A stretch of 41,430 nt of DNA from an uncultured Bordetella sp. (GTDB lineage Bacteria; Pseudomonadota; Gammaproteobacteria; Burkholderiales; JACQAP01). The stretch covers positions 1-41,430 of the forward strand of contig CAYODB010000005.1 of NCBI GenBank assembly GCA_964402495.1, given 5' to 3'. A program made the translations under genes and the position numbers. Below are positions 1,596-40,389 of this stretch, in pieces (positions within the stretch are counted from its first letter, which is position 1; each line of letters begins with the position of its first letter). A model generated the notes under the pieces. That model did not search any database, was not told where the DNA came from, and was given only the letters and a program-made list of their open reading frames with translations.

Positions 1596-1749
1596 ACCGC
1601 CAAGGACGCCAGGGACGCGAAGTAAAACCCGGCAAAGGCACCCTTTCGATGGTAAAGCGAGATGCCGGCGGGTTTTGACTCATGGGAATTGTTCTTTATA
1701 CTCAGCGTCGCTTTTGATTTTCCTTCGCGTCCCTGGCGTCCTTGGCGGT
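1596..1749. repeat. Inverted-repeat cassette 1 (9-nt units, no cargo)
   Basis: Arm 1596-1622 is ACCGCCAAGGACGCCAGGGACGCGAAG and arm 1723-1749 is its exact reverse complement (27/27). The spacer is 100 bp. It lies between the divergent dnaE and trhO starts. Confidence 0.9.
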
Positions 1750-1803
1750 CAAGACTTGCTTTTGGTTGGTAAAATACGCGCACGAACCTCCCGTCCGCCT
1801 TTC

Positions 1804-2532
1804 ATGCAATTCATCAACCTGGCTGGCTACAAGTTCGTGAAACTGGACGGACTTGCGGAATTGCGCGCATCGCTGCGGCTGCAATGCGAGCATCTCGGCC
1901 TGAAAGGCACCATCCTGGTGAGCCCCGAGGGCATCAATGTCTTTGTCGCCGGGCCGGAGCGCGAGATCGGCGAATTCAAGGCCCTGCTGCTCGCCGATGA
2001 CCACTTCGTCGGCCTGCGCTTCAAGGAAAGCCGCTCCGCCGCCCAGCCGTTCAAGCGCATGCTGGTGAAGATCAAACCGGAAATCATCACGCTGCGTGTG
2101 CCCGGTCTGGATCCCGCGGCGAATCCCGCCCCGGCCCTTGCGCCGGCCGAACTGAAGCGCTGGCTGGACGAGGGACGCGAAGTGGTACTGCTCGACACCC
2201 GCAACGCCTTCGAGGTCGAAGCCGGGACTTTCAGGAACGCACTCCACCTGGACCTCAAGGCTTTCGGCGAGTTTCCGCAAGCTGTTGACGGACTGGACCC
2301 TTCGCTCAAGGACAAGACTGTCGTCACTTTTTGCACCGGCGGCATCCGCTGCGAAAAAGCGGCGCCCGTGCTCATCGGCAAAGGCTTTCGTGACGTCTAC
2401 CAGTTGCAGGGCGGGATACTTCAGTATTTCGAGGATAGCGGGGCAGTCCACTTCGACGGGCGCTGTTTCGTCTTCGACGAGCGCAACACACTGGACGGGG
2501 AACTGCGGCCCGAGGCCGTGAAAGCACAATGA
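1804..2532 (+). CDS. trhO: Rhodanese-related sulfurtransferase, UPF0176/YceA family (tRNA U34 hydroxylase TrhO-like)
   Basis: Track ORF 1675..2532. Its first 43 codons read through cassette 1, so I place the start at ATG 1804 (MQFINLAGYKF...). The CTGGIRCEKA active-site loop is typical of YceA/TrhO. Confidence 0.82.
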   Translation: MQFINLAGYKFVKLDGLAELRASLRLQCEHLGLKGTILVSPEGINVFVAGPEREIGEFKALLLADDHFVGLRFKESRSAAQPFKRMLVKIKPEIITLRVPGLDPAANPAPALAPAELKRWLDEGREVVLLDTRNAFEVEAGTFRNALHLDLKAFGEFPQAVDGLDPSLKDKTVVTFCTGGIRCEKAAPVLIGKGFRDVYQLQGGILQYFEDSGAVHFDGRCFVFDERNTLDGELRPEAVKAQ

Positions 2533-3440
2533 CCGCGGCACGCGAAACCCGTCGGGCAACGATCGTGATGATCCTGTTGGTGATCCTCTGGGGTTATAGC
2601 TGGATCACTTCGAAGATCGGCCTCGACTACGCCAGCCCCGTAGATGTCGTCGCGTTGCGCACGGGCCTGGGCATCCTCACGTTGCTGGTCGCCATCATCT
2701 GGACGCGCACTTCGATCCGGCCCCAGCACTGGGAAGCCTTGTTGTGGATCGGCCTGATCCAGACCGGGGCCTTCCTGCTGCTCAATACCTGGGCACTCTC
2801 CGAGGGGGGGGCCGGCAAGACCTCGGTGCTGGTCTTTACCATGCCCTTCTGGGTGCTGATTTTCGCCTGGCCGCTGCTGCACGAACGCATCAGCGGCCTG
2901 CAATGGATTTCCGTCGCGCTGGCGCTCGTCGGCCTGGCTTTCGTGCTCGAACCCTGGAACATGAGCACCTCGCTGTTCAGCAAGACGCTCGCGGTCCTGG
3001 CGGGCATGTGCTGGGCGATAGGTGTGGTCTACGCCAAGCGCCTGCACAACCGCGCGAAGGTCGACGCCCTATCGTTCACCTTCTGGCAGATGATCGTGGG
3101 CATGGTACCGGTCCTGATTGCCCTGGTTCTCGTCGAACGCCAGCCCATCGTCTGGTCGGACACGTTCATCGGCGTCACCCTGTTCAACGGCATCCTCGCG
3201 ACCGGGTTCGGCTGGCTGGCGTGGCTGTACGTCCTGCACCGTCTTCCTGCGGGAACGACCAGCCTTTCCGCGCTGGGAATTCCGGTCATTGCGATTCTCT
3301 CGTCGTGGATCCAGCTTGGCGAACAACCAGGGGGATCGGAGTTGATCGGCATGCTACTCATCGGTATCGCACTCGCACTGCTTTCCTATCTCAGCATCCG
3401 CAGGCGTGAGGTACCGGAGCCCATGACTGGGCAGGAGTAG
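2529..3440 (+). CDS. EamA/DMT-superfamily transporter
   Basis: Track ORF of 303 aa with an ATGA start/stop overlap with trhO. About 10 hydrophobic helices fall in two similar halves, as in EamA-type permeases. Confidence 0.82.
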   Translation: MTAARETRRATIVMILLVILWGYSWITSKIGLDYASPVDVVALRTGLGILTLLVAIIWTRTSIRPQHWEALLWIGLIQTGAFLLLNTWALSEGGAGKTSVLVFTMPFWVLIFAWPLLHERISGLQWISVALALVGLAFVLEPWNMSTSLFSKTLAVLAGMCWAIGVVYAKRLHNRAKVDALSFTFWQMIVGMVPVLIALVLVERQPIVWSDTFIGVTLFNGILATGFGWLAWLYVLHRLPAGTTSLSALGIPVIAILSSWIQLGEQPGGSELIGMLLIGIALALLSYLSIRRREVPEPMTGQE

Positions 3441-3443
3441 AGA

Positions 3444-4082
3444 ATGAAGACTCTGGACTGGTATTTCGATTTCATTTCTCCTTATGCCTATTTGCAGTGC
3501 GCAAGGTTTCCCGTGCTGCCCGCGGACACGCGATTGCGCATAAAACCGGTGTTGTTCGGCGCCCTGCTCGACAACGCCGGCACCCTCGGGCCCGCGGAAA
3601 TTCCCGGCAAGCGCGAGTTCACTTTCCGCCAGGTCCTGTGGCTGGCCAGCCGCAACGGAGTCAAGCTCAAAGTGCCGCCCCGGCATCCGTTCAATCCCCT
3701 GTCGGTCCTGCGGCTGGCTGTTTCTCTCGATGCGCCGCTGGATACAGTGAAGCGCATTTATGAATTCATCTGGGCCGAAGGCCGCGACCCTTCCGATCCG
3801 AAGGAGTTCGCCGCGCTCGCCGCCGAAATGGGCATTGCCGACGCCGACGCACGTATTGCCGATCCGCAGGTAAAGGCAAGGCTGAAAGCCAACACCGACG
3901 CAGCGATTGCCGCGGGCGTCTGGGGCGTGCCCACTTTCGTGGTGGACGGGTTCTGCTTCTGGGGATTCGATTCCGGCACGATGCTGCTCGACTACCTCGC
4001 CGACCCGACGATCTTCTCCGGCCCTGAGTACGCCCGCATCGATTCACTGCCCTCGGGCATCCAGCGAAAACCTCAATCTTGA
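3444..4082 (+). CDS. 2-hydroxychromene-2-carboxylate isomerase family protein (DsbA-like fold)
   Basis: Track ORF of 212 aa. The MKTLDWYFDFISPYAY N-terminus and overall pattern fit HCCA-isomerase/DsbA-like proteins. Stop TGA 4080-4082 overlaps the first bases of the cassette 2 arm. Confidence 0.75.
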   Translation: MKTLDWYFDFISPYAYLQCARFPVLPADTRLRIKPVLFGALLDNAGTLGPAEIPGKREFTFRQVLWLASRNGVKLKVPPRHPFNPLSVLRLAVSLDAPLDTVKRIYEFIWAEGRDPSDPKEFAALAAEMGIADADARIADPQVKARLKANTDAAIAAGVWGVPTFVVDGFCFWGFDSGTMLLDYLADPTIFSGPEYARIDSLPSGIQRKPQS

Positions 4083-4561
4083 ACCACGGAGGGCACGGAG
4101 AACACGGAGGAATGCAACATGGAAGATGACGAGCTTGGCACTCTGTTGATTGGTTGTGCAATTCAGGTCCATCGCGCGCTGGGACCAGGCCTCTTGGAAG
4201 GCGTGTATGAAGCCTGTCTTCTTCATGAACTGATGAAAACAGGAATTGAAGTCAAAAAACAGGTTCCTGTTTCGTTCCACTACGATGGAATTAATTTCGA
4301 CGAAGGCTTCAGAATCGACATCCTTTATGGCAATCGAATCGTGGTGGAGGTTAAGGCTTCTGAAAAACTTCTGCCAATTCATTCCGCCCAACTCCTGACT
4401 TATTTGAAGCTCATGAACTTGCGAATTGGATATCTCTTAAACTTCAACGTTGAACAAATGCGTCAAGGCGGTATAAAACGCCTCGTAAACGGCTAAGCCC
4501 GCACATTAATTCCATTGCCAAACTCCGTTTTTCTCCGTGTTCTCCGTGCCCTCCGTGGTTC
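4081..4561. mobile_element. Inverted-repeat cassette 2 carrying a GxxExxY gene
   Basis: Arm 4081-4109 is GAACCACGGAGGGCACGGAGAACACGGAG and arm 4533-4561 is its exact reverse complement (29/29). The interior is visibly AT-richer than the flanks and holds one ORF. Confidence 0.8.
4119..4496 (+). CDS. GxxExxY protein (TIGR04256-type, PD-(D/E)XK nuclease superfamily)
   Basis: Track ORF of 125 aa. It has the motif GLLEGVY (GxxExxY) and a D...EVK nuclease-like core (RIDILYGNRIVVEVKA). GGAGG at 4106-4110, inside the last arm unit, lies 8 nt upstream of the ATG. Confidence 0.85.
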   Translation: MEDDELGTLLIGCAIQVHRALGPGLLEGVYEACLLHELMKTGIEVKKQVPVSFHYDGINFDEGFRIDILYGNRIVVEVKASEKLLPIHSAQLLTYLKLMNLRIGYLLNFNVEQMRQGGIKRLVNG

Positions 4562-4581
4562 AGGACTAAATCTTGAAGCCA

Positions 4582-5436
4582 ATGAAGTCTGAATACTTAA
4601 GCATCCGAGGCCTGCGTTACCACATGCGAACCTGGGGCGACGCATCGGCGCCGAAGCTGTTCCTGCTGCACGGCTGGATGGATGTCTCGGCGTCGTTCCA
4701 GTTCGTTGTCGACGAACTGCGGCATGACTGGCATGTCGTCGCACCGGACTGGCGGGGCTTCGGCCTTTCGGAATGGACGCCGGAAGGCTACTGGTTCCCG
4801 GATTACATCGCGGACCTCGACGCGATCCTCCAGCACTACCAGCCGGAATCGCCCGCGTATATCGTCGGCCACAGCATGGGTGGCAACGTCGCCAACCTCT
4901 ATGCCGGCATTCGCCCCGAGCGCGTCGGCAAACTGGTGCTGGCGGAAGGTTTCGGCCTGCCGCCGACCAAGCCCGAGAAGGCGCCCGACCGGTTCGCTAG
5001 CTGGCTCGATGAAATTCGCACCCCTCCAACATTGCGGCCCTACGTGAATTTTGGCGCAGTCGCGCAGCGGCTGAAGGCCAACAACCCGCGCATTACCGAC
5101 GAGCGCGCCACGTTCCTTGCGCCGCATTGGGCCGAGCAACTCGACGACGGCAGCATCCGCTTGCGCGCGGACCCGAGCCACAAGATGGTGAACCCGGTGC
5201 TCTACCGGGTCGAGGAAGCCATGGCCTGCTGGAAGCGCATCACCGCGCCGACCCTATGGCTGTGGGGAGACGGGGAATGGATGATGAAGTGGATGAAAGG
5301 CGACAAGTCGTTGCTTGATCCGTATCGCGCCTGCTACCAGTCCCTGCACGAAGAAACTCTCGCGGATGCGGGCCACATGATGCACCACGACCAGCCCGAG
5401 GAATTCGCTCGGGCAATTGAATCGTTTCTTTACTAA
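4582..5436 (+). CDS. Alpha/beta-fold hydrolase
   Basis: The track ORF starts at TTG 4573, and ATG 4582 (MKSEYLSIRG...) is equally possible. It has the HGWMD oxyanion region and the GHSMGG nucleophile elbow. Confidence 0.85.
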   Translation: MKSEYLSIRGLRYHMRTWGDASAPKLFLLHGWMDVSASFQFVVDELRHDWHVVAPDWRGFGLSEWTPEGYWFPDYIADLDAILQHYQPESPAYIVGHSMGGNVANLYAGIRPERVGKLVLAEGFGLPPTKPEKAPDRFASWLDEIRTPPTLRPYVNFGAVAQRLKANNPRITDERATFLAPHWAEQLDDGSIRLRADPSHKMVNPVLYRVEEAMACWKRITAPTLWLWGDGEWMMKWMKGDKSLLDPYRACYQSLHEETLADAGHMMHHDQPEEFARAIESFLY

Positions 5437-5783
5437 TGCCGTTAAAAAACAGCTCTAACCGCAGAGGACGCGGATACCCTACGTGCGTAGCAGGTCGGAG
5501 TACCCTTTTAGGACGCAGAGGTAGCGCAGAGGAAAAGGCTGAAAGGGAATGCGTGTTGCATTCGCGGTCCGTTACAAATGAACGGCATACTGGCTAACGA
5601 CTGAATTTCAGGGTGAACACCTATGTACGCCCAGCCCTCAGTGGCGCCGGACATCTGCCAATCCTGGTCGAACCTGCCAATCACTTGAATTTGGATCGTA
5701 ACGACTATAGGACGTCTCTCAAAGAGGCATATACCCGACAACTTGCTTTGTACTGTTGACATCCCGGATTAAGGGGAATCGAG

Positions 5784-6671
5784 ATGAGCGAAAAATCATT
5801 GCCCGCCCTCGGCGGAAAGACCTTTGAAGAGCTTAAGCAAGCCAATGCCCACGGTGCGGAATACTGGAGCGCCCGCGACCTGCAGTCAGTATTGGGCTAC
5901 AGTCAGTGGCGGCGTTTCGAGCAGGCTATCGAGCGCGCCAAAACCTCTTGTAAAGAATCTGGAAACAGTCCGGAGCATCACTTTGCCGGCGCCGGCAAAC
6001 CGATCGCTGGCGGGAAGGGAGCTGTTCAACTCGTGGACGATTATCAACTTTCCCGCTTCGCCTGCTACCTCATCGCCCAGAACGGCGACCCGCGCAAGCC
6101 CGAAATTGCCCAAGCCCAAAAGTATTTTGCGGTACAAACCCGCCGTCAGGAACTAAGCGACCAGGCGGCGGCCGATCTGGAACGGCTGGAATTGCGCAAG
6201 CAAACAGCCGAGGAATTCAAAGCATTGTCCGGCGCGGCCCAGGATGCCGGCGTGCAGAACAAGATGTTCGGCGTATTTCACGACGCCGGGTACAAGGGTC
6301 TTTATGGCGGCTTGGGGCGCGACGCAATCAAGGTGCGCAAGGCCATTCCCGACAAAGACAACCTGCTCGACCGCATGAACGCCACCGAACTGGCCGCCAA
6401 TCAATTCCGGATGACGCAGACTCGCGACAAATTGGGTCGTGAACGAGTCCAGAACCAGACCCAAGCCATTCAGACGCATGAACAGGTCGGCAAGAAAGTG
6501 CGGGACGCCATCAAGCGAATCGGCGGAACACTGCCGGAGAACATTGCTCCAGCGGAACACATCAAGGAAGTCGAAAAGCGGCTCAAGACCGCAACACCAA
6601 AACTGGAGCTCGACGATCACGACGCGAGTGGTCTGCTGGGTGACACCCGCGAAAATCCCAAAGGTGAATGA
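5784..6671 (+). CDS. dinD: DNA-damage-inducible protein D (DinD) family protein
   Basis: Track ORF of 295 aa. The N-terminal block ...WSARDLQSVLGYSQWRRFEQAIERAK... and ...LSRFACYLIAQNGDPRKPEIAQAQKYFAVQTRRQE are as in proteins annotated DinD. GC is lower than in neighbouring genes. Confidence 0.7.
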   Translation: MSEKSLPALGGKTFEELKQANAHGAEYWSARDLQSVLGYSQWRRFEQAIERAKTSCKESGNSPEHHFAGAGKPIAGGKGAVQLVDDYQLSRFACYLIAQNGDPRKPEIAQAQKYFAVQTRRQELSDQAAADLERLELRKQTAEEFKALSGAAQDAGVQNKMFGVFHDAGYKGLYGGLGRDAIKVRKAIPDKDNLLDRMNATELAANQFRMTQTRDKLGRERVQNQTQAIQTHEQVGKKVRDAIKRIGGTLPENIAPAEHIKEVEKRLKTATPKLELDDHDASGLLGDTRENPKGE

Positions 6672-6787
6672 CGCTCGTTCATGATCGCGACCCCCATCTC
6701 CTGTTCTTACGACCGAATTGCGTTGAACCGGCAAGGAAAGCCGAAGCTTCACGATACATCCGCTGATCCGAAAGCCACGATAACTCT

Positions 6788-7054
6788 ATGCCCCAACTGA
6801 CTTGGCTCGGCGATCAAGAAGCCAAACGCACTGCGCGCAAAGTGCATTACCGGCTTCTCGATCCCGTCGAGCAGGCGGGCGATCCAGCCGCCGGAAATCT
6901 TCTGATCCAGGGCGACAACCTCGAAGCCCTCAAGGCGCCTCTGCCTTTCTACGCCGATCGGGTGAAATGCATTTTTATCGATCCGCCGTACAACACCAAA
7001 AGCGCGTTCGAGCACTATGACGACAATTTGGAAAATCAATTACCTCACAGTTAA
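6788..7054 (+). pseudogene. N-terminal fragment (about 82 native residues) of an N6/N4 DNA methyltransferase (type III Mod-like)
   Basis: MPQLTWLGDQ...NLLIQGDNLEALKAPLPFYADRVKCIFIDPPYNTKSAFEHYDDNLE carries the DPPY catalytic motif. It then breaks into 6 unrelated codons and a stop, whereas full-length enzymes are several hundred residues longer. Confidence 0.72.
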
Positions 7055-7204
7055 GGGAAGAGATACGCAACTGATCATCGGCTGATCGCACCTTCGGCCA
7101 GCGCCCCTGCCCTTTCTCTGCGTTGATTTTCCTCTGCGTCCTAAAAGGGTACTCCGACGTGCTACGCACGTAGGGTATCCGCGTCCTCTGCGGTGAGCGC
7201 TGCT

Positions 7205-8377
7205 CTAATCCTTTCTGAAGAAGTATGACCCACGCCAAAGCGTCAGGCACGCCGTTGCCAGAAACGCCGCCGCATAGCTGTCGCTGATCGCCACGATCAG
7301 CCAGAACATCATCGGCAAGACGACGACGCCCGCGTAAGTCATCGCCAGCGACGCACCCGTTGCAGCCGCCGCCTTTCCCTGCGGCGCGATGCGCGCCACC
7401 TCCGAAAGGTAGACGCCATTCCATCCTATAGCGGTCAGGCCGTATACGAAGCTCACGGCGAATATGGCCGCCACCGGCCAGGACGCCGTAAATGCGGCGG
7501 TCAGGAGGGCAGCGGTCGACATGCCGATGCCGATGGCGCCCAGCACTGCGCGCGGTTTCGCGAAGTTGTCGGCGACGATCCCCCATGCGATGCGGCCGAT
7601 GATTCCCGCGGCCATCGCCGTCGCCAAAGCCGCGCCGGCGAACTGGACGGAGAAGCCGATTCGCTGCGTGAGATAGACCACCAGGAACGTGCTGAGGCAG
7701 CTTTGCATGCCGGAGTACGTACTGGATGCGAAGCCCATTTCGCGCAGCCGCGGGTGCGCCAGCACCAGGCGCAGAGGTTCGAGCAGGCTCGCGGGTTTGA
7801 TAGGCCGGTCGAAATGCCGCGCAAGATCGACGACCGCGCGATAGGGCTGAATGACGAGCGCCAGTGCGACGCAGGCGAATCCCACGGCAAGGGCCGCCAT
7901 TCTCCATCCGTTCGTCACGATCAGCATTGGCACGATCACGCCTGCCATGGCGCCGCCGATCGGCACGCCGGTTTGCTTCAGGGAAAAAATCAGGCTGCGG
8001 ATGCGCTCGGGCGTGCGATCCGCCAGGATCGAAGAACTGGACGGGGTTACCGGACCGTAGCCCAAGCCCATGACCAGCGCGCCCATCGCGACCATCCAGG
8101 GGTTTGCCGTGGAAATCAGCGCAATGCCGGCGCCGCACAACAGCAGCGAATACTGGCTCATGCGCATCGGACCGACTTTCGCGATGATGCCACCGGAGAA
8201 CAGCGCGCCGAAGGTGGCGGCACCGAAAGTCAGTTCAGTAACCAGGCCAACCCAGCTTGCCGGAAACCCGATCTCATCGTGCGCGGCCGGCGCGAAGACC
8301 GGCGGCGCAAATACCGCCATCGACACCAGCGCCTGGATGGCCATGGTGACGATCAACGGCCAGATGACACCTTTCAT
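7205..8377 (-). CDS. MFS transporter
   Basis: Track ORF 7205..8548. The first 57 codons translate cassette 4 (FLRVLRVLRVL...), so I place the start at ATG 8377 (MKGVIWPLIV...). It has about 12 hydrophobic helices. Confidence 0.85.
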   Translation of the reverse strand: MKGVIWPLIVTMAIQALVSMAVFAPPVFAPAAHDEIGFPASWVGLVTELTFGAATFGALFSGGIIAKVGPMRMSQYSLLLCGAGIALISTANPWMVAMGALVMGLGYGPVTPSSSSILADRTPERIRSLIFSLKQTGVPIGGAMAGVIVPMLIVTNGWRMAALAVGFACVALALVIQPYRAVVDLARHFDRPIKPASLLEPLRLVLAHPRLREMGFASSTYSGMQSCLSTFLVVYLTQRIGFSVQFAGAALATAMAAGIIGRIAWGIVADNFAKPRAVLGAIGIGMSTAALLTAAFTASWPVAAIFAVSFVYGLTAIGWNGVYLSEVARIAPQGKAAAATGASLAMTYAGVVVLPMMFWLIVAISDSYAAAFLATACLTLWRGSYFFRKD

Positions 8378-8383
8378 TCTAAT

Positions 8384-8631
8384 TCTTGAACCACGGATAC
8401 CCTCGCCTAGCGTGGAGTACCCTTTTAGGACACGGAGAACACGGAGAACACGGAGGAAAACCAGGAAAGAGAATGGGCGTTGAAGAGAAGGGCAAGTTGG
8501 CAGCGACGATCCTATTCGTTGTGCGAGCATCGAATGACGGATATTCATGCCAGATCACTGCGCACCTCCCACGACCAGCTTGTCTCGTCCTTGTTTTCCT
8601 CCGTGCTCTCCGTGTCCTCCGTGGTCCAAGA
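8384..8631. repeat. Inverted-repeat cassette 4 (9-nt ACACGGAGA units, no intact cargo)
   Basis: The left arm 8384-8460 contains a 34-nt nested insert at 8396-8429. The right arm 8594-8631 is TTTTCCTCCGTGCTCTCCGTGTCCTCCGTGGTCCAAGA. The cassette fills the spacer between the metY stop (8633) and the MFS start (8377). Confidence 0.85.
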
Positions 8632-8632
8632 C

Positions 8633-9919
8633 CTAGGCTTTGGACTGGCCGAGCGCCTGGTCGAGATCCCACAGGATATCGTCGATGTCCTCGATGCCGA
8701 TCGAGATGCGGATCATGTCGGGACCGACGCCGGCCTTGATCTGGTCTTCTTCTGACAACTGGCGGTGGGTAGTGGACGCGGGATGGATCACCAGGGTCTT
8801 GGCGTCGCCGACGTTGGCGAGATGCGAGAAGAACTGCAGGGCCTCGATGAACTTGACCCCGGCCTCCATGCCGCCCTTGATGCCGAAGGTCATGATGGAA
8901 CCCGTGCCTTTGGGCAGGTATTTCTGCGCCAGGGCGTGATACTTGCTGCCGGGAAGGCCAGGGTAATTGACCCAGGAGACGCGCGGATGACCTTCGAGGA
9001 ATTTCGCGACCGCCATGGCATTGGCGACGTGGCGTTCGACGCGCACGTGCAGGGTCTCGAGACCCTGCAACAGCATCCAGGCGTTGAAAGGCGAAAGCAC
9101 GGGACCGAGCGTCCGCATGGTTTCCATGCGGCACTTCATGGTGTAGCCGAAGTCGCCGAAGGTCTCGTGGAATATCACACCGTGATAGCCGCGCGAGGGT
9201 TCGGTCATCATCGGAAACTTGCCGTTGCCCCAGGGAAACTTACCGGATTCGACCAGCACGCCCCCCATGGTGGTACCGTGGCCGCCGATGAACTTGGTGG
9301 CGGAATGGATCACGATGTCCGCACCGAACTTGATCGGCTGGCACAGGTAAGGCGAAGCAAAGGTGTTGTCGATCATCAGCGGCACGCCCGCTTCTTTCGC
9401 AATGTTCGCGACAGCCTCAATGTCGAGCACATTGATTTGCGGATTGCCCATGGTTTCAGCGTAGAGCACGCGGGTTCGGGGCGTGATCACCTTACGGAAA
9501 TTCTCCGGGTCGTCCGGATGGACGAAGACCGTCTTGATGCCGAACTGGCGGAAGGTCACATCGAACTGCGAATAGGTGCCGCCGTACAGCGTGCTGGCGG
9601 AAACGATCTCGTCGCCTTCGCGCAGGATGGTGAGCAGGGCGCACATCTGCGCCGCCTGGCCCGAAGAGGTCGCCAGCGCCGCCCGCCCGCCTTCGAGGGC
9701 TGCCATCCTTTCCTCGAAAACGGCCACTGTCGGATTCGAGATGCGCGAATAGACGTTACCGAAGGTCTGCAGGTTGAACAGGCTCGCCGCATGCTCGGGG
9801 GAATCGAAGACGAACGACGTGGTCTGGTAGATTGGCACCGCGCGCGCGCCCGTTGCCGCGTCGGGGATCTGACCTGCATGAAGGCACAAGGTGCCGAATC
9901 CGAATTCTCTGTCTGCCAT
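8633..9919 (-). CDS. metY: O-acetylhomoserine aminocarboxypropyltransferase/sulfhydrylase
   Basis: Track ORF of 428 aa. FGTLCLHAGQ...PIYQTTSF...NPT... and the SATKFIGGHG PLP-lysine region are typical of MetY/Cys-Met PLP enzymes. Confidence 0.92.
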   Translation of the reverse strand: MADREFGFGTLCLHAGQIPDAATGARAVPIYQTTSFVFDSPEHAASLFNLQTFGNVYSRISNPTVAVFEERMAALEGGRAALATSSGQAAQMCALLTILREGDEIVSASTLYGGTYSQFDVTFRQFGIKTVFVHPDDPENFRKVITPRTRVLYAETMGNPQINVLDIEAVANIAKEAGVPLMIDNTFASPYLCQPIKFGADIVIHSATKFIGGHGTTMGGVLVESGKFPWGNGKFPMMTEPSRGYHGVIFHETFGDFGYTMKCRMETMRTLGPVLSPFNAWMLLQGLETLHVRVERHVANAMAVAKFLEGHPRVSWVNYPGLPGSKYHALAQKYLPKGTGSIMTFGIKGGMEAGVKFIEALQFFSHLANVGDAKTLVIHPASTTHRQLSEEDQIKAGVGPDMIRISIGIEDIDDILWDLDQALGQSKA

Positions 9920-9926
9920 GATGGTT

Positions 9927-10096
9927 CAGTGAATAGTGAATAGTGAATAGTGAACGGTGAATGGTGAATGGTAATCAGTGAACGGTGAACGGTGAATAGT
10001 AAACGGTGATCAGTGATCGGTTAACCGTGAAAGGCAATCAGTACGCGGGAATTGGTCTCGCCTTTACCGATCGCTGTTCACCGATTACCGTTCGCC
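9927..10096. repeat. Inverted-repeat cassette 5 (heptamer array)
   Basis: About 15 in-phase heptamers (CAGTGAA, TAGTGAA x3, CGGTGAA, TGGTGAA...) span 9927-10031. After a short central segment, about 5 reverse-complement heptamers (GTTCACC/GATTACC type) run to 10096. Confidence 0.88.
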
Positions 10097-10099
10097 GCT

Positions 10100-10585
10100 T
10101 CAGTAAGGAAGCCAATTCGGCCGCTTGGAGGAAATGACTTTGGTATTGACGCCGACCCAGTTCAGTCCGCCGAACAGGCGGCCGTGCTCGATCTTGACGC
10201 AACGATCCTGCACCACTTCGAGGCCGGCTTTGCGGGCCTTATCGGCGGCAGCCTCGTTCATGACGCCAATCTGCATCCACAGCACCTTCGCCCCGACTGC
10301 TATGGCCTCGTCGACGATTGGATCGATGTCTTCGCTCTTGCGGAAGCAGTCGACGACGTCGATCTTTTCCGGAATATCGCGCACGCTCGAATACACCTTC
10401 TCGCCGAGGATTTCCTGGCCCTTGTACGACGGGTTCACCGGGATGATGCGGTAGCCGTGCTCCTGCATGTACTTGGCCGCGAAGAAACTCGGACGGTACC
10501 AGTTGGCGGACAGACCGACGACTGCAATGGTCTTGTACTGGCGCAGGATGCGGCGCAGCGTGTTGATATCGGTGGTGTCGCTCAT
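10100..10585 (-). CDS. CoA-binding domain protein (YccU-like)
   Basis: This is the C-terminal 161 codons of track ORF 10100..11536. I place the start at ATG 10585 (MSDTTDINTLRRILRQYKTIAVVGLS...), which gives the usual length. The upstream part of that ORF overlaps the aminopeptidase gene in another frame. Confidence 0.82.
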   Translation of the reverse strand: MSDTTDINTLRRILRQYKTIAVVGLSANWYRPSFFAAKYMQEHGYRIIPVNPSYKGQEILGEKVYSSVRDIPEKIDVVDCFRKSEDIDPIVDEAIAVGAKVLWMQIGVMNEAAADKARKAGLEVVQDRCVKIEHGRLFGGLNWVGVNTKVISSKRPNWLPY

Positions 10586-10752
10586 GGTTCTCTTGATAGT
10601 GGCTGCTTTGGGAAATGTGAACGGGGCCGGAATTAACAAGGAGGCCGGGATTCGGATTGGAGGGCTTGACCCCTCCGGCTGACTTGAAGCGATTCTAGCA
10701 CTGCATCGCTCGATGGGAATCTTGACGGGAATGCGGCCCAGTCTGTCCGCAA

Positions 10753-11808
10753 TCAGCTTTCGGGTTCTGCAGCGGCCGTGACGCCAAGCCGGACCGCGCG
10801 TTTTTCCTTGCCCAGGCCGCCGATCTTCCTCACGTCGGCATAGAAACGCGTGAAGTCGCCCTTGTTCTCCGCAAGCAGTTGGCGGAAAGCCGGCACCAGC
10901 TCCGAATAGGTGGCGACCGGCACGATGTGGGCATTGTTGAGCGCGCCCGCAAAGAACCGGTCGTAGGCGGCGAACCCGCCCCAGGACTGTTTCAAGGTCT
11001 CGTACTCGGCTTTCAGGTCCCGAAAGACCGCGGCCTTCCGGCTGCGCTTTTCCGGCTCTGCCAGGTCGGACGCATAAAGAGTCCCGAGCCTGTCCCGATA
11101 CTTCAAGACCAGGGCGATGAAGCCGCGCTTGTATTCCTGGCGGGTTTCGAAGCCGGCACGCTGTGCGGGTGTCCCGTTGCGCGCCAGCCAGCGCTCCATG
11201 CCCTCCAGTTCCACGGCCGTGGCGAAGGATTCGTTGAACATGGTATCGCCGGAAACGTAAACCACCTGGTGCGCCAGTTCGTGAAATACCAGACGCGCGA
11301 TCTCGGCATCGGGATAGCGGATAAAGGTGTTCAGAACCGGATCGTCGAACCAGCCCAGGGTCGAGTAGGCAGGGACTCCGGATACGAACACATCCCGGCC
11401 CTTCGACTGCAATCCCGCACCGAACTCCTCTGCTGTTTTCTCGCTGAAGTAGCCGCGGTAGGCCACGCAACCTGCAAACGGAAAGCACCAGTCCAGCGGC
11501 TTCATGGAGAACTCGTCGGTCGCGAATACGTTCCACACGACATAGGGCCGCTGCAGGTCGGCGTACTTGCGATAGCTGCCGTTGTCCGGCAGGGCCAGTT
11601 CCGTGCTGGCGAAATCGCGCACCCGCTGCACCAGTTCCAGGCGCTCGCGCAGCTTCGGGTCAGTATGTGAATCGCCGATCAGCGTTTCGATCGGCTGGCT
11701 CTTGCGCCAAAGTTCCATCTGGCCGCTGACAGCCTGATAGTAATAACCGACACCGGCGCAGCCGGCGAGGCACAGCAACAGCAAGCCGGCAATCAGCGGC
11801 CTGGTCAC
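10753..11808 (-). CDS. Predicted zinc aminopeptidase (DUF2265/PF10023-like), lipoprotein
   Basis: Track ORF 10753..11937. It has a lipobox-like LLLLCLAGCAG and an HELAH motif. I place the start at GTG 11808, which overlaps the upstream stop (GTGA). Confidence 0.7.
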   Translation of the reverse strand: MTRPLIAGLLLLCLAGCAGVGYYYQAVSGQMELWRKSQPIETLIGDSHTDPKLRERLELVQRVRDFASTELALPDNGSYRKYADLQRPYVVWNVFATDEFSMKPLDWCFPFAGCVAYRGYFSEKTAEEFGAGLQSKGRDVFVSGVPAYSTLGWFDDPVLNTFIRYPDAEIARLVFHELAHQVVYVSGDTMFNESFATAVELEGMERWLARNGTPAQRAGFETRQEYKRGFIALVLKYRDRLGTLYASDLAEPEKRSRKAAVFRDLKAEYETLKQSWGGFAAYDRFFAGALNNAHIVPVATYSELVPAFRQLLAENKGDFTRFYADVRKIGGLGKEKRAVRLGVTAAAEPES

Positions 11809-13350: not shown

Positions 13351-13397
13351 GAACGAGTCCTGTGCGGAAGCAAAGGCCATTATAGGAGAGGCGGAGG

Positions 13398-14168: not shown

Positions 14169-14231
14169 CTCGTCCCGATCACCTGTCAGGAGTGCATCCC
14201 GGTATCCGCTCGAAGAGGCGCCCGTCACCCG

Positions 14232-15464: not shown

Positions 15465-15603
15465 GGTTTCCTCCCCGTTTTGTGAACAACCTGGTCGTTC
15501 CCGGCTCCGGGCTTTCCTGCTCGAAGCATAGTTTGGAATCCGCCGAATACCAGTGAGACTCGGACCTCTGGGCAGGAATGGCGGTGCCCTTTGCGCGATT
15601 CGC

Positions 15604-15637
15604 AGAAGAAGAAAACGCCCGGCACTTGGCTGGGCGT
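15604..15637 (-). terminator. Rho-independent terminator after binding-protein paralog 2
   Basis: The minus strand reads ACGCCC-(11 nt)-GGGCGT followed by TTTCTTCTTCT. Confidence 0.7.
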
Positions 15638-15644
15638 CTTTACT

Positions 15645-31203: not shown

Positions 31204-32589
31204 ATGAATCTGCCCGCGGAAAAACATCATTCAGCAATCGAGGAAATACGCGCCCGGTTCGGCGACCGGCTCTCCACCAGCACCGGCGTGCGCGACCACC
31301 ACAGCAAGGACGAGTCCTGGCATCACCCGCACCGGCCCGATGCCGTGGTGTTTCCGAACAACACCGAAGAAGTCGCCGAGATCGTGCGCATCTGCGCCGC
31401 GCACAAAACCCCTGTGGTTGCCTACGGTACCGGCACTTCGCTGGAGGGCAATGTGATTCCGCATCATGGCGGCGTGGTCGTCGACCTGATGAACATGAAC
31501 AAGGTGCTGCGCGTCGGCGCGGAAGACCTGGATGTCACGGTCCAGGCGCGCGTCACCCGCAAGGAGTTGAACGCCTTCATCCGCGACCAGGGCCTGTTCT
31601 TTCCGATCGACCCGGGTGCGGACGCGTCGCTGGGCGGCATGGCAGCCACGCGAGCGTCCGGAACCAACGCCGTGCGCTACGGCACGATGCGCGAGAACGT
31701 GCTCGCACTGACCGTGGTTCTGGCTGACGGACGCATCATCCGCACGTCGCGCCGCTCACGTAAATCCTCGGCGGGCTATGACCTGACGCGTCTGTTCGTC
31801 GGCTCCGAAGGCACGCTCGGCATCATCACCGAAGTCACGCTGCGCCTGTATGGCATTCCCGAAGCCATGGCGGCGGCCGTATGCTCGTTCGACAGCATCG
31901 AAGGCGCGGTCAACACCGTCATCCAGACCATCCAGCTCGGCATCCCGGTCGCGCGCATCGAACTGCTCGACGACGTGCAGATGGACGCCGTGAACAAGTT
32001 CTCCAAGCTGAACTATGCGGTCAAGGACACGCTGTTCGTCGAATTCCACGGCACCGACGCCGGCGTCAAGGAACAGGCGGAAATGGTGCAGTCGATCGCC
32101 GCAGAGCACGGCGGTGGCGAATTCAAATGGGCGACCAAGACCGAGGATCGCACTGCGCTGTGGACGGCGCGCCACGATGTTACGTACGCCAACAAAGCGT
32201 TGCGCCCCGGTTGTGAGATCTGGGCGACCGATGTCTGCGTGCCGATCTCCAGGCTGACCGACTGCATCATGGAGACCAAAAAAGATCTGAAGGAAAGCTT
32301 CCTGATCGCGCCGCTGGTCGGCCACGTGGGCGACGGCAATTTCCACCTGGGTTTCCTGATCAACCGCGACGATCCGAAGGAACTCGAGGAAGCAGAACGC
32401 CTGAACGATCGGCTGGTCATGCGCGCCCTGGCCATGGACGGCACCTGCACCGGCGAGCACGGCATCGGGCTGGGAAAAATGAAATTCCTCACTGCCGAGC
32501 ACGGCGAAGCCGTCGGCGTCATGCGGCAGATCAAGAGGGCGCTCGATCCGCAGAATATTCTGAATCCGGGGAAGATTTTCACGTTGTGA
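31204..32589 (+). CDS. FAD-linked oxidase (D-lactate/D-2-hydroxyacid dehydrogenase, GlcD-like)
   Basis: Track ORF of 461 aa. It has an FAD_binding_4-type N-terminal half (VVAYGTGTSLEG) and GTCTGEHGIG near the C-terminus. Stop TGA 32587-32589 overlaps the cassette 9 arm. Confidence 0.88.
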   Translation: MNLPAEKHHSAIEEIRARFGDRLSTSTGVRDHHSKDESWHHPHRPDAVVFPNNTEEVAEIVRICAAHKTPVVAYGTGTSLEGNVIPHHGGVVVDLMNMNKVLRVGAEDLDVTVQARVTRKELNAFIRDQGLFFPIDPGADASLGGMAATRASGTNAVRYGTMRENVLALTVVLADGRIIRTSRRSRKSSAGYDLTRLFVGSEGTLGIITEVTLRLYGIPEAMAAAVCSFDSIEGAVNTVIQTIQLGIPVARIELLDDVQMDAVNKFSKLNYAVKDTLFVEFHGTDAGVKEQAEMVQSIAAEHGGGEFKWATKTEDRTALWTARHDVTYANKALRPGCEIWATDVCVPISRLTDCIMETKKDLKESFLIAPLVGHVGDGNFHLGFLINRDDPKELEEAERLNDRLVMRALAMDGTCTGEHGIGLGKMKFLTAEHGEAVGVMRQIKRALDPQNILNPGKIFTL

Positions 32590-32708
32590 AGGGAAGAGGG
32601 ACGAGGGTTGAGGGAAAAGCGATCTCCTTAACCCCCGTCCAGATCTCCCCGCTGTCTGCCTGATCCCTGCTCTTCCCTCGCCCCTCGTCCCACTTCCCTC
32701 GCCCCTCC
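32588..32708. repeat. Inverted-repeat cassette 9 (7-nt NGAGGGA units, compact hairpin)
   Basis: Arm 32588-32624 is GAAGGGAAGAGGGACGAGGGTTGAGGGAAAAGCGATC. The reverse complement of arm 32662-32708 is GGAGGGGCGAGGGAAGTGGGACGAGGGGCGAGGGAAGAGCAGGGATC. The loop is about 35 nt. Confidence 0.8.
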
Positions 32709-32709
32709 A

Positions 32710-33063
32710 GTGCCAACGATCTACGGGATCAGGAACTGCGACACCATGAAGAAGGCCTTCGCCTGGCTTGACGGGCATGGCGTCGATTACGCCTTCCATG
32801 ACTACAAGGTGGCGGGAATCGAGGTCGCGCATCTCAAGGCGTGGTCGAAACAGGTCGGCTGGGATGTGCTGCTTAATACCCGCGGCACGACGTGGCGCAA
32901 GCTGTCGCCTGCGGAGCAGGCGAACGTCGACGAAGCCAAGGCAATAAAGCTGATGGTCGAGAACCCGAGCCTGATCAAGCGGCCCGTGCTGGTGCTGGAG
33001 AACGGGAAGAACCTGCTGGTCGGCTTCGCGCCGGATCGTTACGAAAGCGCCCTGAAGCGATAG
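32710..33063 (+). CDS. ArsC/Spx-family reductase (YffB-like)
   Basis: Track ORF of 117 aa with a GTG start. IYGIRNCDTMKKA is the N-terminal motif of this family. Confidence 0.85.
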   Translation: MPTIYGIRNCDTMKKAFAWLDGHGVDYAFHDYKVAGIEVAHLKAWSKQVGWDVLLNTRGTTWRKLSPAEQANVDEAKAIKLMVENPSLIKRPVLVLENGKNLLVGFAPDRYESALKR

Positions 33064-38263: not shown

Positions 38264-38283
38264 CCGTAGCGGGCCGGACGGGC

Positions 38284-39072
38284 CTAGCTCTTGAGCCGGT
38301 AGCCCGTCCTGAAGATCAGGACCACCCCGCCCAGGCACAGCAGGAAAAACCCGAGGGTTGCCGCGAGGCTCACCTCCACGGCCACGTCCGACGTCCCGTA
38401 GAAGCTCCAGCGGAAGCCGCTGATCAGGTACACGATCGGATTGAACAGGCTGACCGTGCGCCATGCCGGCGGCAGCATGTCGATCGAGTAGAAGGCCCCG
38501 CCCAGGAAAGTCAGCGGGGTGATAACCAGCATCGGGATGAACTGCAGTTGCTCGAAGCCTTTCGCCCAGATGCCGATAATGAAGCCGAACAGGCTGAAGG
38601 TTGCCGCGGTCATCAGCAGGAAAGCGACCATCCACACCGGGTGCAGGATCTGGATCGGCACGAACAGGGATGCCGTCGCCAGGATGACCAGCCCCAGGAT
38701 CATCGACTTGGTCGCCGACGCCCCCACATAAGCCAGGACGATTTCCAGCGCCGACACCGGCGCCGACAGGACTTCGTAGATCGTGCCCGTGAACCTCGGC
38801 AGGTAAATGCCGAACGAGGCATTGTTCAGGCTTTCGGTGAACAGCGACAGCATGATCAGTCCCGGCACGATGAATGCGCCGTATGGCACGCCGCTGACTT
38901 CGCTCATCCGGGAGCCGATGGCGGCGCCGAACACGACGAAGTACAGGGAAGTGGTGATCACCGGCGTGACCAGGCTCTGCCACACGGTGCGCTTGAAGCG
39001 CGCCAGCTCGAAACGGTAGATCGAGAGGACGCCGTGGCGGTTGAAGGACGGAATCCTGGCTGCCGTGCTCAT
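38284..39072 (-). CDS. ABC-2 type transporter permease (YadH-like)
   Basis: Track ORF of 262 aa with 6 hydrophobic helices and an ATGA overlap with the upstream ATPase gene. Confidence 0.85.
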
Positions 39073-39995
39073 GTGCGTTCGTGTACCAGGCTGACGAAAA
39101 TATCCTCCAGCGAGCTTTGCCCGGTCTGCAGGTCCTTGAAGCCGATGCCGATCTCGCTCAGCCGGCGCAGCAGCGCGGGGATGCCGGTGCCCTCTTCGGT
39201 CGCATCGAAGTCATATTCCAGCACCGTACCCTCCGACTTCAGCGTAAGGCGCCAGTCTCCGAGTTCGGCGGGAATAGCCTTCATCGGTTCGAGCAGATGC
39301 AGGGTGAGCTGCTTCTTGCCGAGCTTTTTCATGAGCCGGGATTTCTCCTCGACCAGGATCAGCGTGCCCTTGCTGATGACGCCGATGCGATCGGCCATTT
39401 CCTCGGCTTCATCGATGTAATGGGTGGTCAGGATGATGGTCACGCCGCTTTCCCGCAGGCGCTGTACCAGTGCCCACATGTCGCGCCGCAGCTCCACATC
39501 CACGCCCGCCGTCGGTTCATCCAGGAACAGGATTTCCGGCTCGTGCGCCAGCGCCTTGGCGATCAGCACCCGCCGCTTCATGCCGCCGGACAGGGTCATG
39601 ATCTTGTCGTCGCGTTTTTCCCACAGCGACAGGTCGCGCAGCACCTTCTCCAGGTGTGCCGGGTTGCGCGAATGTCCGAACAGGCCGCGGCTGAAACTGA
39701 TCGTGTTCCATACCGTCTCGAACGTGTCGGTATGCAGTTCCTGCGGCACCAGGCCGATTTTCGAACGGGATGCACGGTAGTCGCGCACGATGTCGTGCCC
39801 GTCCACGAGCACCGTCCCCGTCGTCGGAGTAACGATTCCGCAGATGATGCTGATCAGCGTGGTCTTGCCGGCGCCGTTGGGCCCGAGCAGGGCGAAGATC
39901 TCGCCCTTGCGGATTTCGAGGTCGACCTTCTTCAGCGCCTCCAGGCCGGACGCATAGGTCTTGGTCAGGCCGGAGATGGAAATGACAGGGATCAT
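39069..39995 (-). CDS. ABC transporter ATP-binding protein (YadG-like)
   Basis: Track ORF 39069..40142. I place the start at ATG 39995 ([14 protein letters not shown]...). It has Walker [10 protein letters not shown], signature LSGGMKRR and Walker B ILFLDEP. Confidence 0.88.
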
Positions 39996-40256
39996 GGGAG
40001 CGGGATTATAAAAGGACGAGGTATCAGGCGCGAGCGGCACCGATGCGCTGGCCGCACCTTCCGGCCGGAAGAACCGGGAATTGATGTCGCTGCCGGTGCC
40101 CGTGGAAATCGTCTCGATGTTCATCATCCAATATTGATTCACAATCGCCTGAATTGGCGCCAGGAGTCCACTTTGCCATTCGCGCGTGAACGAAACAGAC
40201 GCAGGGACGTGAAAGGAGCGTGAAAAGGTCTGGGGGCCAGGGGCTGGCGAAAAGCA

Positions 40257-40389
40257 GGTAAAAGATGAAAGGCGAAAGCTTGGAGTTTTAAATCTGACAG
40301 TGTCCGTCAGGTCAAATCGCGACTACTAAAGGTCAACTACCTTGCGGTGCCTCCTTAAAACTCCAAGCTTTCGGCTTTCCCCTTTTACC
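40257..40389. repeat. Inverted-repeat cassette 10 (7-nt GNGAAAG units)
   Basis: Arm 40257-40291 is GGTAAAAGATGAAAGGCGAAAGCTTGGAGTTTTAA. The reverse complement of arm 40355-40389 is GGTAAAAGGGGAAAGCCGAAAGCTTGGAGTTTTAA (32/35). The spacer is 63 bp and contains the hairpin CTGAC-N7-GTCAG. Confidence 0.85.

Follow-up and report, generated by a model that had tools for sequence, protein, structure and literature searches.

What are the inverted repeats that fill so many gene spacers of contig CAYODB010000005.1, a 41,430-nucleotide stretch of DNA from an uncultured member of the Burkholderiales that is called the window here? The original prediction, made from the letters alone, described ten intergenic cassettes (c1 to c10 in window order), each with a 5' arm of short tandem purine-rich units and a 3' arm that is the reverse complement of it, and offered either selection on the hairpin or copying of one arm from the other as the cause. 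With a probability of roughly 0.55, we read the cassettes as copies of a widespread family of selfish, hairpin-ended elements (that is, elements with terminal inverted repeats) that lie in gene spacers, are presumably mobile and are tied to the GxxExxY nuclease. Among the observations behind this reading are that gene and arms keep company across phyla, and that close relatives have the same sites occupied, vacant or occupied by something else.

The window (41 kb analysed of this genome; G+C content 60.6%) derives from a Burkholderiales metagenome-assembled genome population in Antarctic microbial-mat metagenomes, where near-identical contigs occur in several JGI/ENA samples, and its top genome match is 'Burkholderiales bacterium ant_bin.647'. 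An inverted-repeat detector (arms of at least 18 nt, at least 82% complementary) found 13 inverted-repeat clusters in the window, whereas 30 block shuffles of it gave 1.0 on average and no more than 3. All ten loci were present where they had been predicted or a few bases off, and every arm pair was recovered (31 to 72 nt, 87 to 100% complementary) except that of the asymmetric cassette c5. Periodicity, assessed with Tandem Repeats Finder (TRF), was confirmed at 9 or 7 nt in eight cassettes, including an asymmetry of three against four units at 22303/22469; 19549-19590 (c6) and 40257-40291 (c10) were not reported, the periodicity being weak or mixed there. Seven cassettes are of the 9-mer type (c1, c2, c3, c4, c6, c7 and c8), and c5, c9 and c10 are of the heptamer type. 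Each of the ten lies in a gene spacer and nearly fills it. At c8, for example, the stop codon at 24816 and the start codon at 25028 enclose arms that span 24826-25004, and at c9 the stop codon is at 32589, the arms span 32588-32708 and the start codon is at 32710. Neighbouring genes are co-directional at eight cassettes, convergent at c3 and divergent at c1. The purine-rich arm comes first in 32 of 33 cassettes from the window and its relatives, which by symmetry is true of both strands. Folded as RNA, the eight cassettes without an open reading frame (ORF) gave z-scores of -5 to -12 on both strands. The shared architecture, the co-varying arms, the related outer ends and the intergenic placement that had been described all hold in the window.

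Less of the claim that the unit sequence differs from cassette to cassette survives. The own-arm complementarity score is highest for all ten cassettes, as claimed, yet the difference was overstated for the 9-mers: the arms of c2 (4081) and c4 (8384) are practically interchangeable (own scores 32/31, cross score 30), and so are those of c7 (22297), c8 (24826) and c3 (5451) (31/33 own against 29 cross). The seven cassettes of the 9-mer type form one family and vary a single motif; they are not separate sequences. Their arms are built of two to five tandem units of 8 to 10 nt with the common core C-R-C-N-R-A-G, set behind a terminal TT(A/C)AC. Among the copies in the window one is complete (c2), one brackets a variable island (c3) and five lack an ORF (c1, c4, c6, c7 and c8).

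On the element reading, the complete form consists of a gene of about 125 codons for a GxxExxY protein, a Cas4/RecB-like member of the PD-(D/E)XK nucleases, tightly packed between two arms. In c2 the 5' arm includes the dsbA stop codon, and 7 nt separate its last unit from the ATG of the cargo. The 125-aa product matched TIGR04256 at 137.6 bits (NCBIfam cut-off 35) and PF13366 (PDDEXK_3) at 133.8 bits (Pfam cut-off 22), and its ORF has a G+C content of 43% in a 60% genome. The 15 aligned homologues all retain D67, E77, K79 and the GxxExxY motif, and by this alignment the PD-(D/E)XK catalytic core is intact. A structural model of the protein (mean predicted local distance difference test score 91) had as its nearest solved folds Cas4 SSO0001 (template modelling score 0.56), lambda-exonuclease-like enzymes and tRNA-splicing endonuclease, all of them generic PD-(D/E)XK neighbours. 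A sequence search of the PDB found no solved relative, and a search of a phage collection found no GxxExxY protein. A profile search of a 50%-identity protein library returned 30,545 cluster representatives at E<=1e-3. The literature, searched for GxxExxY, TIGR02436, PF13366 and PDDEXK, yielded no functional study. The top-scoring library members (P0121-P0132 and others) are about 270 to 295 aa long and contain two tandem GxxExxY domains; either they are genuine dimers fused into one chain, or the gene calls ran through tandem copies, and such fusions hint at a dimeric working unit.

The original prediction had named a link between similar repeats and GxxExxY genes in other genomes, and it proved strong. 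Scanning metagenome contigs gave 80 GxxExxY loci with 47 to 78% identity to the window protein, 70 of which had sufficient flank to be evaluated. An inverted repeat brackets the gene in 55 of these 70, with periodic arms in 45 of the 55, and of six loci scored as negative that were checked by eye, four do have arms adjoining the gene. Units across these loci include CGCAGAG, CGCGGAG, CACAGAG, CACGGAG, CACGAAG, CACAAAG and CGCAAAG. When the ends were anchored on the outermost unit, TT-[A/C]-A-C followed by C-[G/A]-C-N-[G/A]-A-G emerged as the consensus at both ends of 51 and 58 elements, and farther out than this terminus there was no conservation. Where loci were inspected, the distance from the 5' arm to the start codon is a few nucleotides, a few tens at most, and the 3' arm follows soon after the stop codon. 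The arrangement recurs in Bacteroides finegoldii, where the radA stop codon is followed by TTCACCACAGAGGACGCAGAGG..., the GxxExxY gene and ...CCTCTGTGGTGAA, with the next ATG 8 nt on and units of the GGAGG type. In Gemmatirosa kalamazoonensis, a GxxExxY gene likewise stands between arms and has ORF-less cassettes adjoining it, and in Sphingomonas parapaucimobilis (NZ_CP155749.1, positions 1480-1941; L170) the gene and a 5' arm lie between fabD and fabG. This last record is annotated as an 880-kb 'plasmid' and is probably a chromid, since it carries rpsF. The second gene group named there, the four-helix-bundle (TIGR02436) genes, was not met in the window or in the fetched loci, although no search was aimed at it.

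The base composition of the gene is one mark of a selfish or foreign element. The G+C content of the GxxExxY ORF is lower than that of its flanks in 72 of the 80 loci, by a mean of 8.4 points, and correlates with host G+C (r=0.77), a pattern typical of horizontally moving genes. Where orientation could be called, the cargo runs in the same direction as the upstream neighbour in 18 of 21 cases and as the downstream neighbour in 17 of 20 (35 of 41 overall). With its neighbours running the same way and no space for a promoter of its own, the cargo probably owes its expression to read-through transcription from the host. Most contigs with close GxxExxY homologues are just ~0.5-3 kb long, most of them ~1 kb, which fits assemblies breaking at repeated arms. 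One locus (L136, 2090-2470) has five tandem, nearly identical mini-hairpins of 77-79 nt (arms ~30 nt, loop ~9 nt) directly upstream of the GxxExxY gene, and more of them downstream.

Are these sites stable within the lineage of the window? Relatives were found by scanning species-representative genomes with the flanking O-acetylhomoserine sulfhydrylase (cysmet), which gave 80 loci. The loci fetched numbered 171 in all, among them eight near-identical population contigs, including L001 and L002, and the relatives L009-L021. Twelve close relatives retain the order coaB-cysmet-MFS-hydrolase-(dsbA)-eamA-rhodanese-dnaE (MFS, major facilitator superfamily), and across five orthologous spacers they show empty sites, solo arms and differing unit variants. 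The cysmet-MFS spacer holds a cassette in 10 of the 12, with units of CCACGGAGG in the window, CCGCAAAGG in L009, CCGCAGAGG in L010, L012, L019 and L020, CCACGAAGG in L011, L013 and L017, and CACAGRG in L021; it is empty in L014 (55 nt) and L015 (42 nt), and L018 has a solo 3' arm. Genes of the window and L009 share ~90% nucleotide identity, yet the cassette in this spacer is wholly replaced between them. L013 and L017, the two most closely related, have identical arms and a visibly more diverged loop. The hydrolase-dsbA junction is without a cassette in L011 and L014, where, read by eye, only a few nucleotides separate the dsbA stop from the hydrolase start. In the window c2 occupies this exact junction point, and its TTGAAC terminus gives dsbA a new stop codon. 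The rhodanese-dnaE spacer that houses c1 is empty, at ~100 nt, in L011, L013, L014 and L017, and carries three unit types in four other relatives. A comparison of orthologous spacers for presence and absence had been proposed with the original prediction; empty sites were seen, and the loci are not fixed and identical in all relatives.

The MFS-hydrolase spacer (window 5437-7204; L009 and L011-L020) is a hot spot whose island differs by lineage. It contains DinD and a mod remnant in the window, VapBC in L009, type III restriction-modification (R-M) genes with VapBC in L016, and an unannotated gene of ~160-170 codons in L013, L017, L018 and L020, whereas L011, L014 and L019 have no island (L019 has a solo arm remnant). 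The mod remnant is the 88-aa ORF of c3, which is probably a truncated type III mod methylase gene, given its 92% identity to the N-terminal part of an ORF called mod in L016. L009 and L016 have the MFS-side arm alone; the window has a mirrored second arm. Further cargo between or beside such arms comprises VapBC (L009, L016 and L114), type III R-M (L016), a SocA/Panacea antitoxin-like gene (L167) and DinD. A near-palindrome, ATTTCCGG(G/A)AAT, was seen in 4 of the 171 fetched loci, always in the loop of an ORF-less 9-mer cassette and in two different spacers.

Within an element the two arms co-vary. The 3' arm of the same element is the best partner of the 5' arm in 38 of 52 elements, so the match between arms exceeds the shared motif. 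Several arms are interrupted by a mini-insert of 30-36 nt, composed of ATACCCT, a small variable hairpin (CGCCTAGCG, CGCGAAGCG or ACGTGCGTAGCACGT) and then GGAGTACCCTTTT (GGAGTACCC(T/A)TTT). The split that it makes in a 9-mer unit always falls at CGG^AGG. Changes in its stem compensate one another, and three copies of its 18-nt core stand in the window where 0.02 would be expected; the insert resembles a tiny nested element with arm units as its target. The mini-insert is confined to one arm in c4 and L012, and in c3 it stands at mirror positions in both arms. Concerted change is also seen at one host site shared by L092, L096 and L097, where the arms are positionally homologous and have an irregular third unit in common, while one lineage has mainly CAC-type units and the others mainly CGC-type units, both arms alike. 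Of the two explanations first offered, the copying of arms from each other is therefore backed by the mirrored nested insert and by the concerted unit changes. Unit number, for its part, changes by slippage. A 7-nt unit (GTGAACG) at ~9949 in c5 is the sole indel between the window and L001-L002 (~20 kb, 99.9% identity) and again the sole indel in L003-L006, L007 differs further inside the array, and arms may be unequal (three against four units in c7, 15 against five in c5). The arms would be kept matched by copying between them at the DNA level together with unit turnover within arrays, and template switching on a hairpin or cruciform and gene conversion between inverted arms are candidate processes.

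Matched arms could also be maintained by selection on a helix. Under that explanation the cassettes are RNA elements, stem-loops in operons that punctuate mRNA (RNase III cleavage, or 3'-end protection of the kind given by REP sequences) or regulate translation. Eight of the ten do stand between genes of one direction and take up the spacer from stop to start, the predicted hairpins are very stable, and Xanthomonas repeats of a similar kind are transcribed (PMC4692102). Moreover, a Shine-Dalgarno (SD)-like motif precedes the start codon by 4-16 nt in 30 of 52 GxxExxY loci and lies wholly within the paired 5' arm in 13. An RNA helix tolerates G·U pairs, and mismatches between arms were therefore counted on the sense strand. 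The 52 cargo-bearing GxxExxY cassettes had 52 G·U-compatible mismatches against 47 A·C and 73 others, a count without a G·U excess. ORF-less cassettes in co-directional spacers leaned toward G·U on the transcribed strand without reaching significance (23 against 12, p=0.09), and the pooled counts were 75 against 59 (p=0.20). Folding is as strong on either strand, divergent (c1) and convergent (c3) spacers are occupied too, and presence, absence and replacement in close relatives speak against conserved regulation of the flanking genes. Nor does helix stability explain a terminus and unit core that are conserved across phyla including Bacteroides. A search of the window against Rfam at gathering thresholds returned no matches. 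A terminator role was tried and rejected: none of the five cassettes in 1-20000 was called terminator-like, and no T-runs (U-tracts in the transcript) stand behind the arms. The specific proposal that the transcripts expose SD-like repeats 5' and anti-SD-like repeats 3' fared no better, as there was no G·U preference and the units GGTGAAN and CACAGAT are not SD-like. The phylum of Bacteroides is not known to rely on SD pairing, and GGAGG-type units in Bacteroides finegoldii accordingly argue against an SD role. We regard the RNA explanation as unlikely; the counts hold no evidence for selection on an RNA helix, and RNA hairpins would be a by-product of the structure rather than its selected function.

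On the reading of the cassettes as a nuclease-linked element family, the ORF-less copies would relate to the complete form as REPINs (hairpin-forming doublets of repetitive extragenic palindromic, REP, sequences) relate to genes for REP-associated tyrosine transposases (RAYTs), or as MITEs (miniature inverted-repeat transposable elements) relate to their parent elements. The GxxExxY nuclease, probably dimeric, would recognise the units and the terminus and promote excision, insertion or copying without target-site duplication. Hairpin, cruciform or single-stranded DNA would serve as intermediates, and templating of one arm from the other at the DNA level would keep the pair matched. A bolder and more tentative version makes the GxxExxY proteins the enzymes of a new bacterial foldback-type class, in which a Cas4-like dimer might recognise the units and TT(A/C)AC on a hairpin or cruciform, move or copy the element and regenerate an arm. 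Regeneration of one arm from the other would account for both the mirroring of the nested insert and the concerted change of units; the ORF-less hairpins would be REPIN-like passengers, and the arms would be portable entry points for defence and toxin-antitoxin cargo.

Several results weigh against the element reading. The loops of ORF-less cassettes share no sequence, and no GxxExxY remnants were detected in them. As a copy-and-paste burst would give shared loops, this weakens the versions in which ORF-less cassettes are internally deleted copies or the product of a MITE burst. Among 41 elements, none had a direct repeat of at least 3 nt abutting its ends, and no minimal PD-(D/E)XK protein is known to act alone as a transposase. 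The eight near-identical population contigs show no insertion polymorphism, only a change in unit number, and differing units at one spacer could stem from in-place evolution of old insertions instead of several insertion events. The nearest neighbour in protein similarity shares the CAC/CGC class of unit in 35 of 50 cases (p=0.02), a weak association that cannot separate recognition from linkage, since plain linkage predicts the same. The single GxxExxY copy of the window has CCACGGAGG arms while the other cassettes have CGCAGAGG, CGCAAAGG or CGCCAAGG units, a mismatch that calls for several nuclease lineages or another explanation. Finally, no partner gene was found for the heptamer cassettes, which show no link to GxxExxY.

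Some of these points suit an origin without mobility, in which a motif expands by slippage, an inverted copy arises by template switching or fold-back repair, and the arms are scars of integration or repair at hot spots. Unit-number polymorphism and very unequal arrays (13 against seven units in L013, besides those of c5) agree with such a process, as do loops unique to each locus, the lack of target-site duplications and the presence of just two to three TTCAC units upstream of cysmet in L014. Inverted identity also continues slightly past the conserved terminus into the flanks (0.40, controls 0.29), and at the MFS-hydrolase hot spot L009 and L016 have a solo arm where the window has a mirrored pair. 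What makes this origin improbable is that the same core and TT(A/C)AC terminus recur in Betaproteobacteria, Bacteroidota, Gemmatimonadota, Desulfuromonadota and dozens of metagenomic lineages, and that it leaves the tight, specific association with one gene family, GxxExxY, unexplained.

How do the heptamer cassettes fit? Cassettes c5, c9 and c10 have the same architecture as the 9-mer family (purine-first polarity, intergenic position and hairpin form), and the nuclease-linked reading takes them as sister families of the 9-mer elements. Membership is least certain for c10, in which periodicity is weak. The presence, absence and variation of c5 were documented across eleven relatives. Upstream of cysmet, where L014 has its few TTCAC units, L011 has a 9-mer cassette and relatives have full heptamer cassettes. 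Arrays of 13-15 units are attained in just one of the two arms. The terminal motif of many 9-mer elements (...CGGTGAA) is identical to the c5 unit GGTGAAN, a hint that the c5 heptamers are related to them. For the heptamer cassettes, origin in place by slippage and inverted duplication is nonetheless a live option. The G-tract heptamers of c9 raise a further alternative, that they form G-quadruplexes or i-motifs. The 5' arm of c9 has four GGG tracts at 4-nt spacing, and Rehm et al. (2015, PMC4692102) found G-quadruplex formation in vitro for such heptamers in Xanthomonas, where GGGAATC occurs as 70-75 convergent inverted pairs per genome. However, most arms have GG runs or none (GGTGAAN, CACAGAT), a duplex or hairpin would compete in an inverted pair, and the complementary pairing of the arrays is left unexplained; we hold this alternative to be highly doubtful. 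The units of c9 are AGGGAAG, AGGGACG and AGGGTTG, with no GGGAATC among them, so c9 falls outside the (GGGANTN)n definition with GGGAATC and bears only a resemblance to the Xanthomonas repeats. Those repeats and the cyanobacterial short tandemly repeated repetitive (STRR) sequences are like c9 and c5 in being tandem G-rich heptamers, ~90% intergenic, near the upstream ORF and variable in unit number. The Xanthomonas repeats have no cargo or enzyme assigned, and STRR and TAACTGA repeats are mostly unpaired direct arrays, unlike the cassettes.

That no such architecture has been described is true only in part. Paired inverted tandem octa-, nona- and heptamers have been catalogued in Geobacter metallireducens (Aklujkar et al. 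2009, PMC2700814), as have the GGGAATC pairs of Xanthomonas (PMC4692102); that no mechanism had been described stands, as neither account gives one. In Geobacter metallireducens the paired tandem sites fall into class 1 (GTTGCTYN), class 2 (TCTCCGTS[Y]) and class 3 (MTYCTGA), and class 2 comprises 21 pairs of three TCTCCGTS[Y] units on opposite strands that are missing at the orthologous sites of G. sulfurreducens (PMC2700814). The paired sites agree with the cassettes in their three to five tandem units, opposite-strand pairs, variable distance and intergenic position, and the 9-mer of class 2 is the same as in c2 and c4: by TRF consensus, TTCTCCGTG at 4531-4557 and CCTCCGTGC at 8598-8623 both fit the class 2 definition. 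The Geobacter description makes no tie to GxxExxY, hairpins or mobility. Its authors interpreted the sites of classes 1-3 as putative IHF/HU or global-regulator sites (PMC2700814), and the conserved unit core would suit repeated sites to which a global regulator or a nucleoid protein of the host binds. We consider this very improbable for the cassettes. Periods of 7, 8, 9 and 10 nt allow no constant helical phasing, sites are missing or replaced at the same housekeeping genes in close relatives, and in unrelated phyla, whose regulators differ, the units go with a nuclease gene that looks mobile, with no regulator gene linked. CRISPR-like readings were set aside along with regulator binding, there being no array and no constant phasing.

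In how they would work, the cassettes are closest to REP/REPIN-RAYT systems and bacterial interspersed mosaic elements (BIMEs) of Enterobacteria and Pseudomonas, which likewise are dense intergenic hairpin doublets with a nuclease-type gene flanked by its own repeats. ORF-less copies that far outnumber the gene, the lack of target-site duplication and tandem hairpin clusters (BIME-like in L136) are further points of likeness. As hairpin doublets that are all intergenic the cassettes resemble REPINs, although within the 41 kb the copies share arms and not loops. Here, however, the gene encodes a PD-(D/E)XK protein (GxxExxY) rather than a Y1 HUH transposase, its G+C deficit suggests horizontal movement where RAYTs are vertical, the arms are tandem arrays of 7-10-nt units instead of a single palindromic REP of 20-35 nt, and the loops are unique instead of family-wide. 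The ORFs of the window, scanned with Pfam and NCBIfam, gave no transposase-like match and no RAYT. The closest analogue in architecture is the Foldback (FB) transposon of Drosophila, along with similar eukaryotic elements. There, short subrepeats in tandem make up the terminal inverted repeats, copies differ in arm length and so do the two arms of a copy, arms resemble their own partner most, and the middle is optional or variable. Foldback elements differ in being eukaryotic, in their much longer arms and other transposases, and in making target-site duplications. MITEs are alike as small non-coding units with terminal inverted repeats (which the cassettes have), intergenic placement and presence/absence polymorphism, and unlike in that the cassettes have no target-site duplication, DDE transposase parent or shared internal sequence. 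Integron attC sites are imperfect palindromes of ~60-140 nt that vary in sequence while keeping their structure, and their cargo is often toxin-antitoxin or small unknown genes. They were rejected as an identity: no integrase domain was found among the scanned ORFs and there is no cassette array, the cassettes being dispersed with arms that bracket the ORF. The intervening sequences of 23S rRNA with small ORFs (S23p/four-helix-bundle; Coxiella, PMC4990558) also place a selfish ORF in a long stem and depend on host transcription. This connection found no support here, as no rRNA occurs in the window (Rfam) or in the 40 GxxExxY loci searched, and the arms here are tandem arrays.

A search of the literature found no publication that ties these repeats to GxxExxY or treats them as one class. 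That link and the single class would thus be new; the repeats themselves were already on record for Geobacter and Xanthomonas, though with no mechanism attached. The link supplies a testable DNA partner, unit plus terminus, for a very large orphan nuclease family on which almost no literature was found, and it would unite the Geobacter 'global regulator sites', the Xanthomonas G-quadruplex heptamers and maybe the STRR repeats. Should the arms prove to be mobilised by the nuclease, a new bacterial transposition or homing chemistry would be at hand, a counterpart of the eukaryotic Foldback. The elements occur inside housekeeping operons, probably break metagenome assemblies, and mark exchange spots for defence cargo. 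Coordinates are collected in Table 1.

Table 1. Cassette arms, cargo and recurrent short motifs; positions are those of the window unless a fetched locus is named.
Feature	Position	Strand	Content	Pairing or context
c1 5' arm	1592-1627		CGCCAAGGA-type 9-mers, terminus CTTCACC	pairs with 1718-1753, 36 nt, 94%
c1 3' arm	1718-1753			divergent spacer, dnaE (ATG 1560, -) / rhodanese (1804, +)
c2 5' arm	4077-4112 (core 4080-4109)		units TCTTGAACC-ACGGAGG GCACGGAGA ACACGGAGG	core 30/30 complementary to 4533-4562
c2 cargo, GxxExxY gene	4119-4496	+	125 aa
c2 3' arm	4530-4565 (core 4533-4562)			ends 16 nt upstream of hydrolase ATG (4582)
c3 5' arm	5450-5538		ACGCAGAGG type, nested mini-insert 5474-5509	5450-5521 pairs with 7131-7202
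c3 cargo, DinD-like protein, Bro-N domain	5784-6671	+	NF008573, 369.9 bits; PF02498
c3 cargo, 88-aa ORF	6788-7054	+		similar to N-terminal part of L016 mod-called ORF (92%)
c3 3' arm	7111-7204		mirrored mini-insert at 7143-7178	72-nt arms, 96% complementary, insert included
c4 5' arm	8384-8466		ACACGGAGA x3, nested mini-insert 8397-8426 in 5' arm alone	8431-8466 pairs with 8588-8623, 36 nt, 92%
c4 3' arm	8588-8631			cassette fills spacer MFS (start 8377) / O-acetylhomoserine sulfhydrylase (stop 8633)
c5 5' array	9927-10031		15 heptamers NRGTGAA (TRF)
c5 3' array	10063-10099		~5 complementary heptamers, TTCACCG type
c6 5' arm	19549-19590		CACAAAGG/CGCGAAGA/CGCAAAGG, mixed 8-9 nt
c6 3' arm	19703-19744			42 nt, 88% complementary
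c7 5' arm	22295-22330		3 units ACGCRGAGG	22298-22329 pairs with 22478-22509, 32 nt, 97%
c7 3' arm	22468-22512		4 units
c8 5' arm	24815-24884 (core 24826-24861)			core 36 nt, 94% (76% when extended to 70 nt)
c8 3' arm	24946-25015 (core 24969-25004)			ends 13 nt ahead of SD and ATG (25028) of MR/MLE gene
c9 5' arm	32588-32624		four GGG-bearing heptamers NGAGGGA	begins at stop codon of flavin adenine dinucleotide (FAD) oxidase gene
c9 3' arm	32662-32708			32590-32620 pairs with 32669-32699, 31 nt, 87%; abuts arsC GTG start (32710)
c10 5' arm	40256-40291		2-3 GNGAAAG units and a non-repetitive part	36 nt, 92%
c10 3' arm	40355-40390			complementary to 40256-40291
Mini-insert	5474-5509; 7143-7178 (reverse complement); 8397-8426			window
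Mini-insert	~3245-3285			L009
Mini-insert	~1590-1628; ~3008-3046			L012
Near-palindrome ATTTCCGG(G/A)AAT	1970-1981			L009
Near-palindrome ATTTCCGG(G/A)AAT	11367-11378			L011
Near-palindrome ATTTCCGG(G/A)AAT	6703-6714			L019
Near-palindrome ATTTCCGG(G/A)AAT	6073-6084			L020

Individual cassettes showed some further features. The arms of c6 match cassettes of L009 at 88-92%. The loop of c1 (1675-1702, + strand) contains the best sigma-70-like match of the first 20 kb, TTGACT-16-TATACT (10 of 12 positions), which faces the rhodanese gene, and this cassette may carry, or have displaced, a promoter. At c9 the 3' arm runs up to the GTG start of arsC, so the ribosome-binding region of that gene is wholly occupied by the cassette, and the sequence left there (32700-32712) is a pyrimidine-rich leader with no SD motif, CCCTCGCCCCTCCA-GTG. 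Outside the cassettes, a gene pair for a MazE-like antitoxin and a Fic-domain protein, called on the identical contig L001, lies at 17656-18263 (+ strand) in a region that is otherwise housekeeping.

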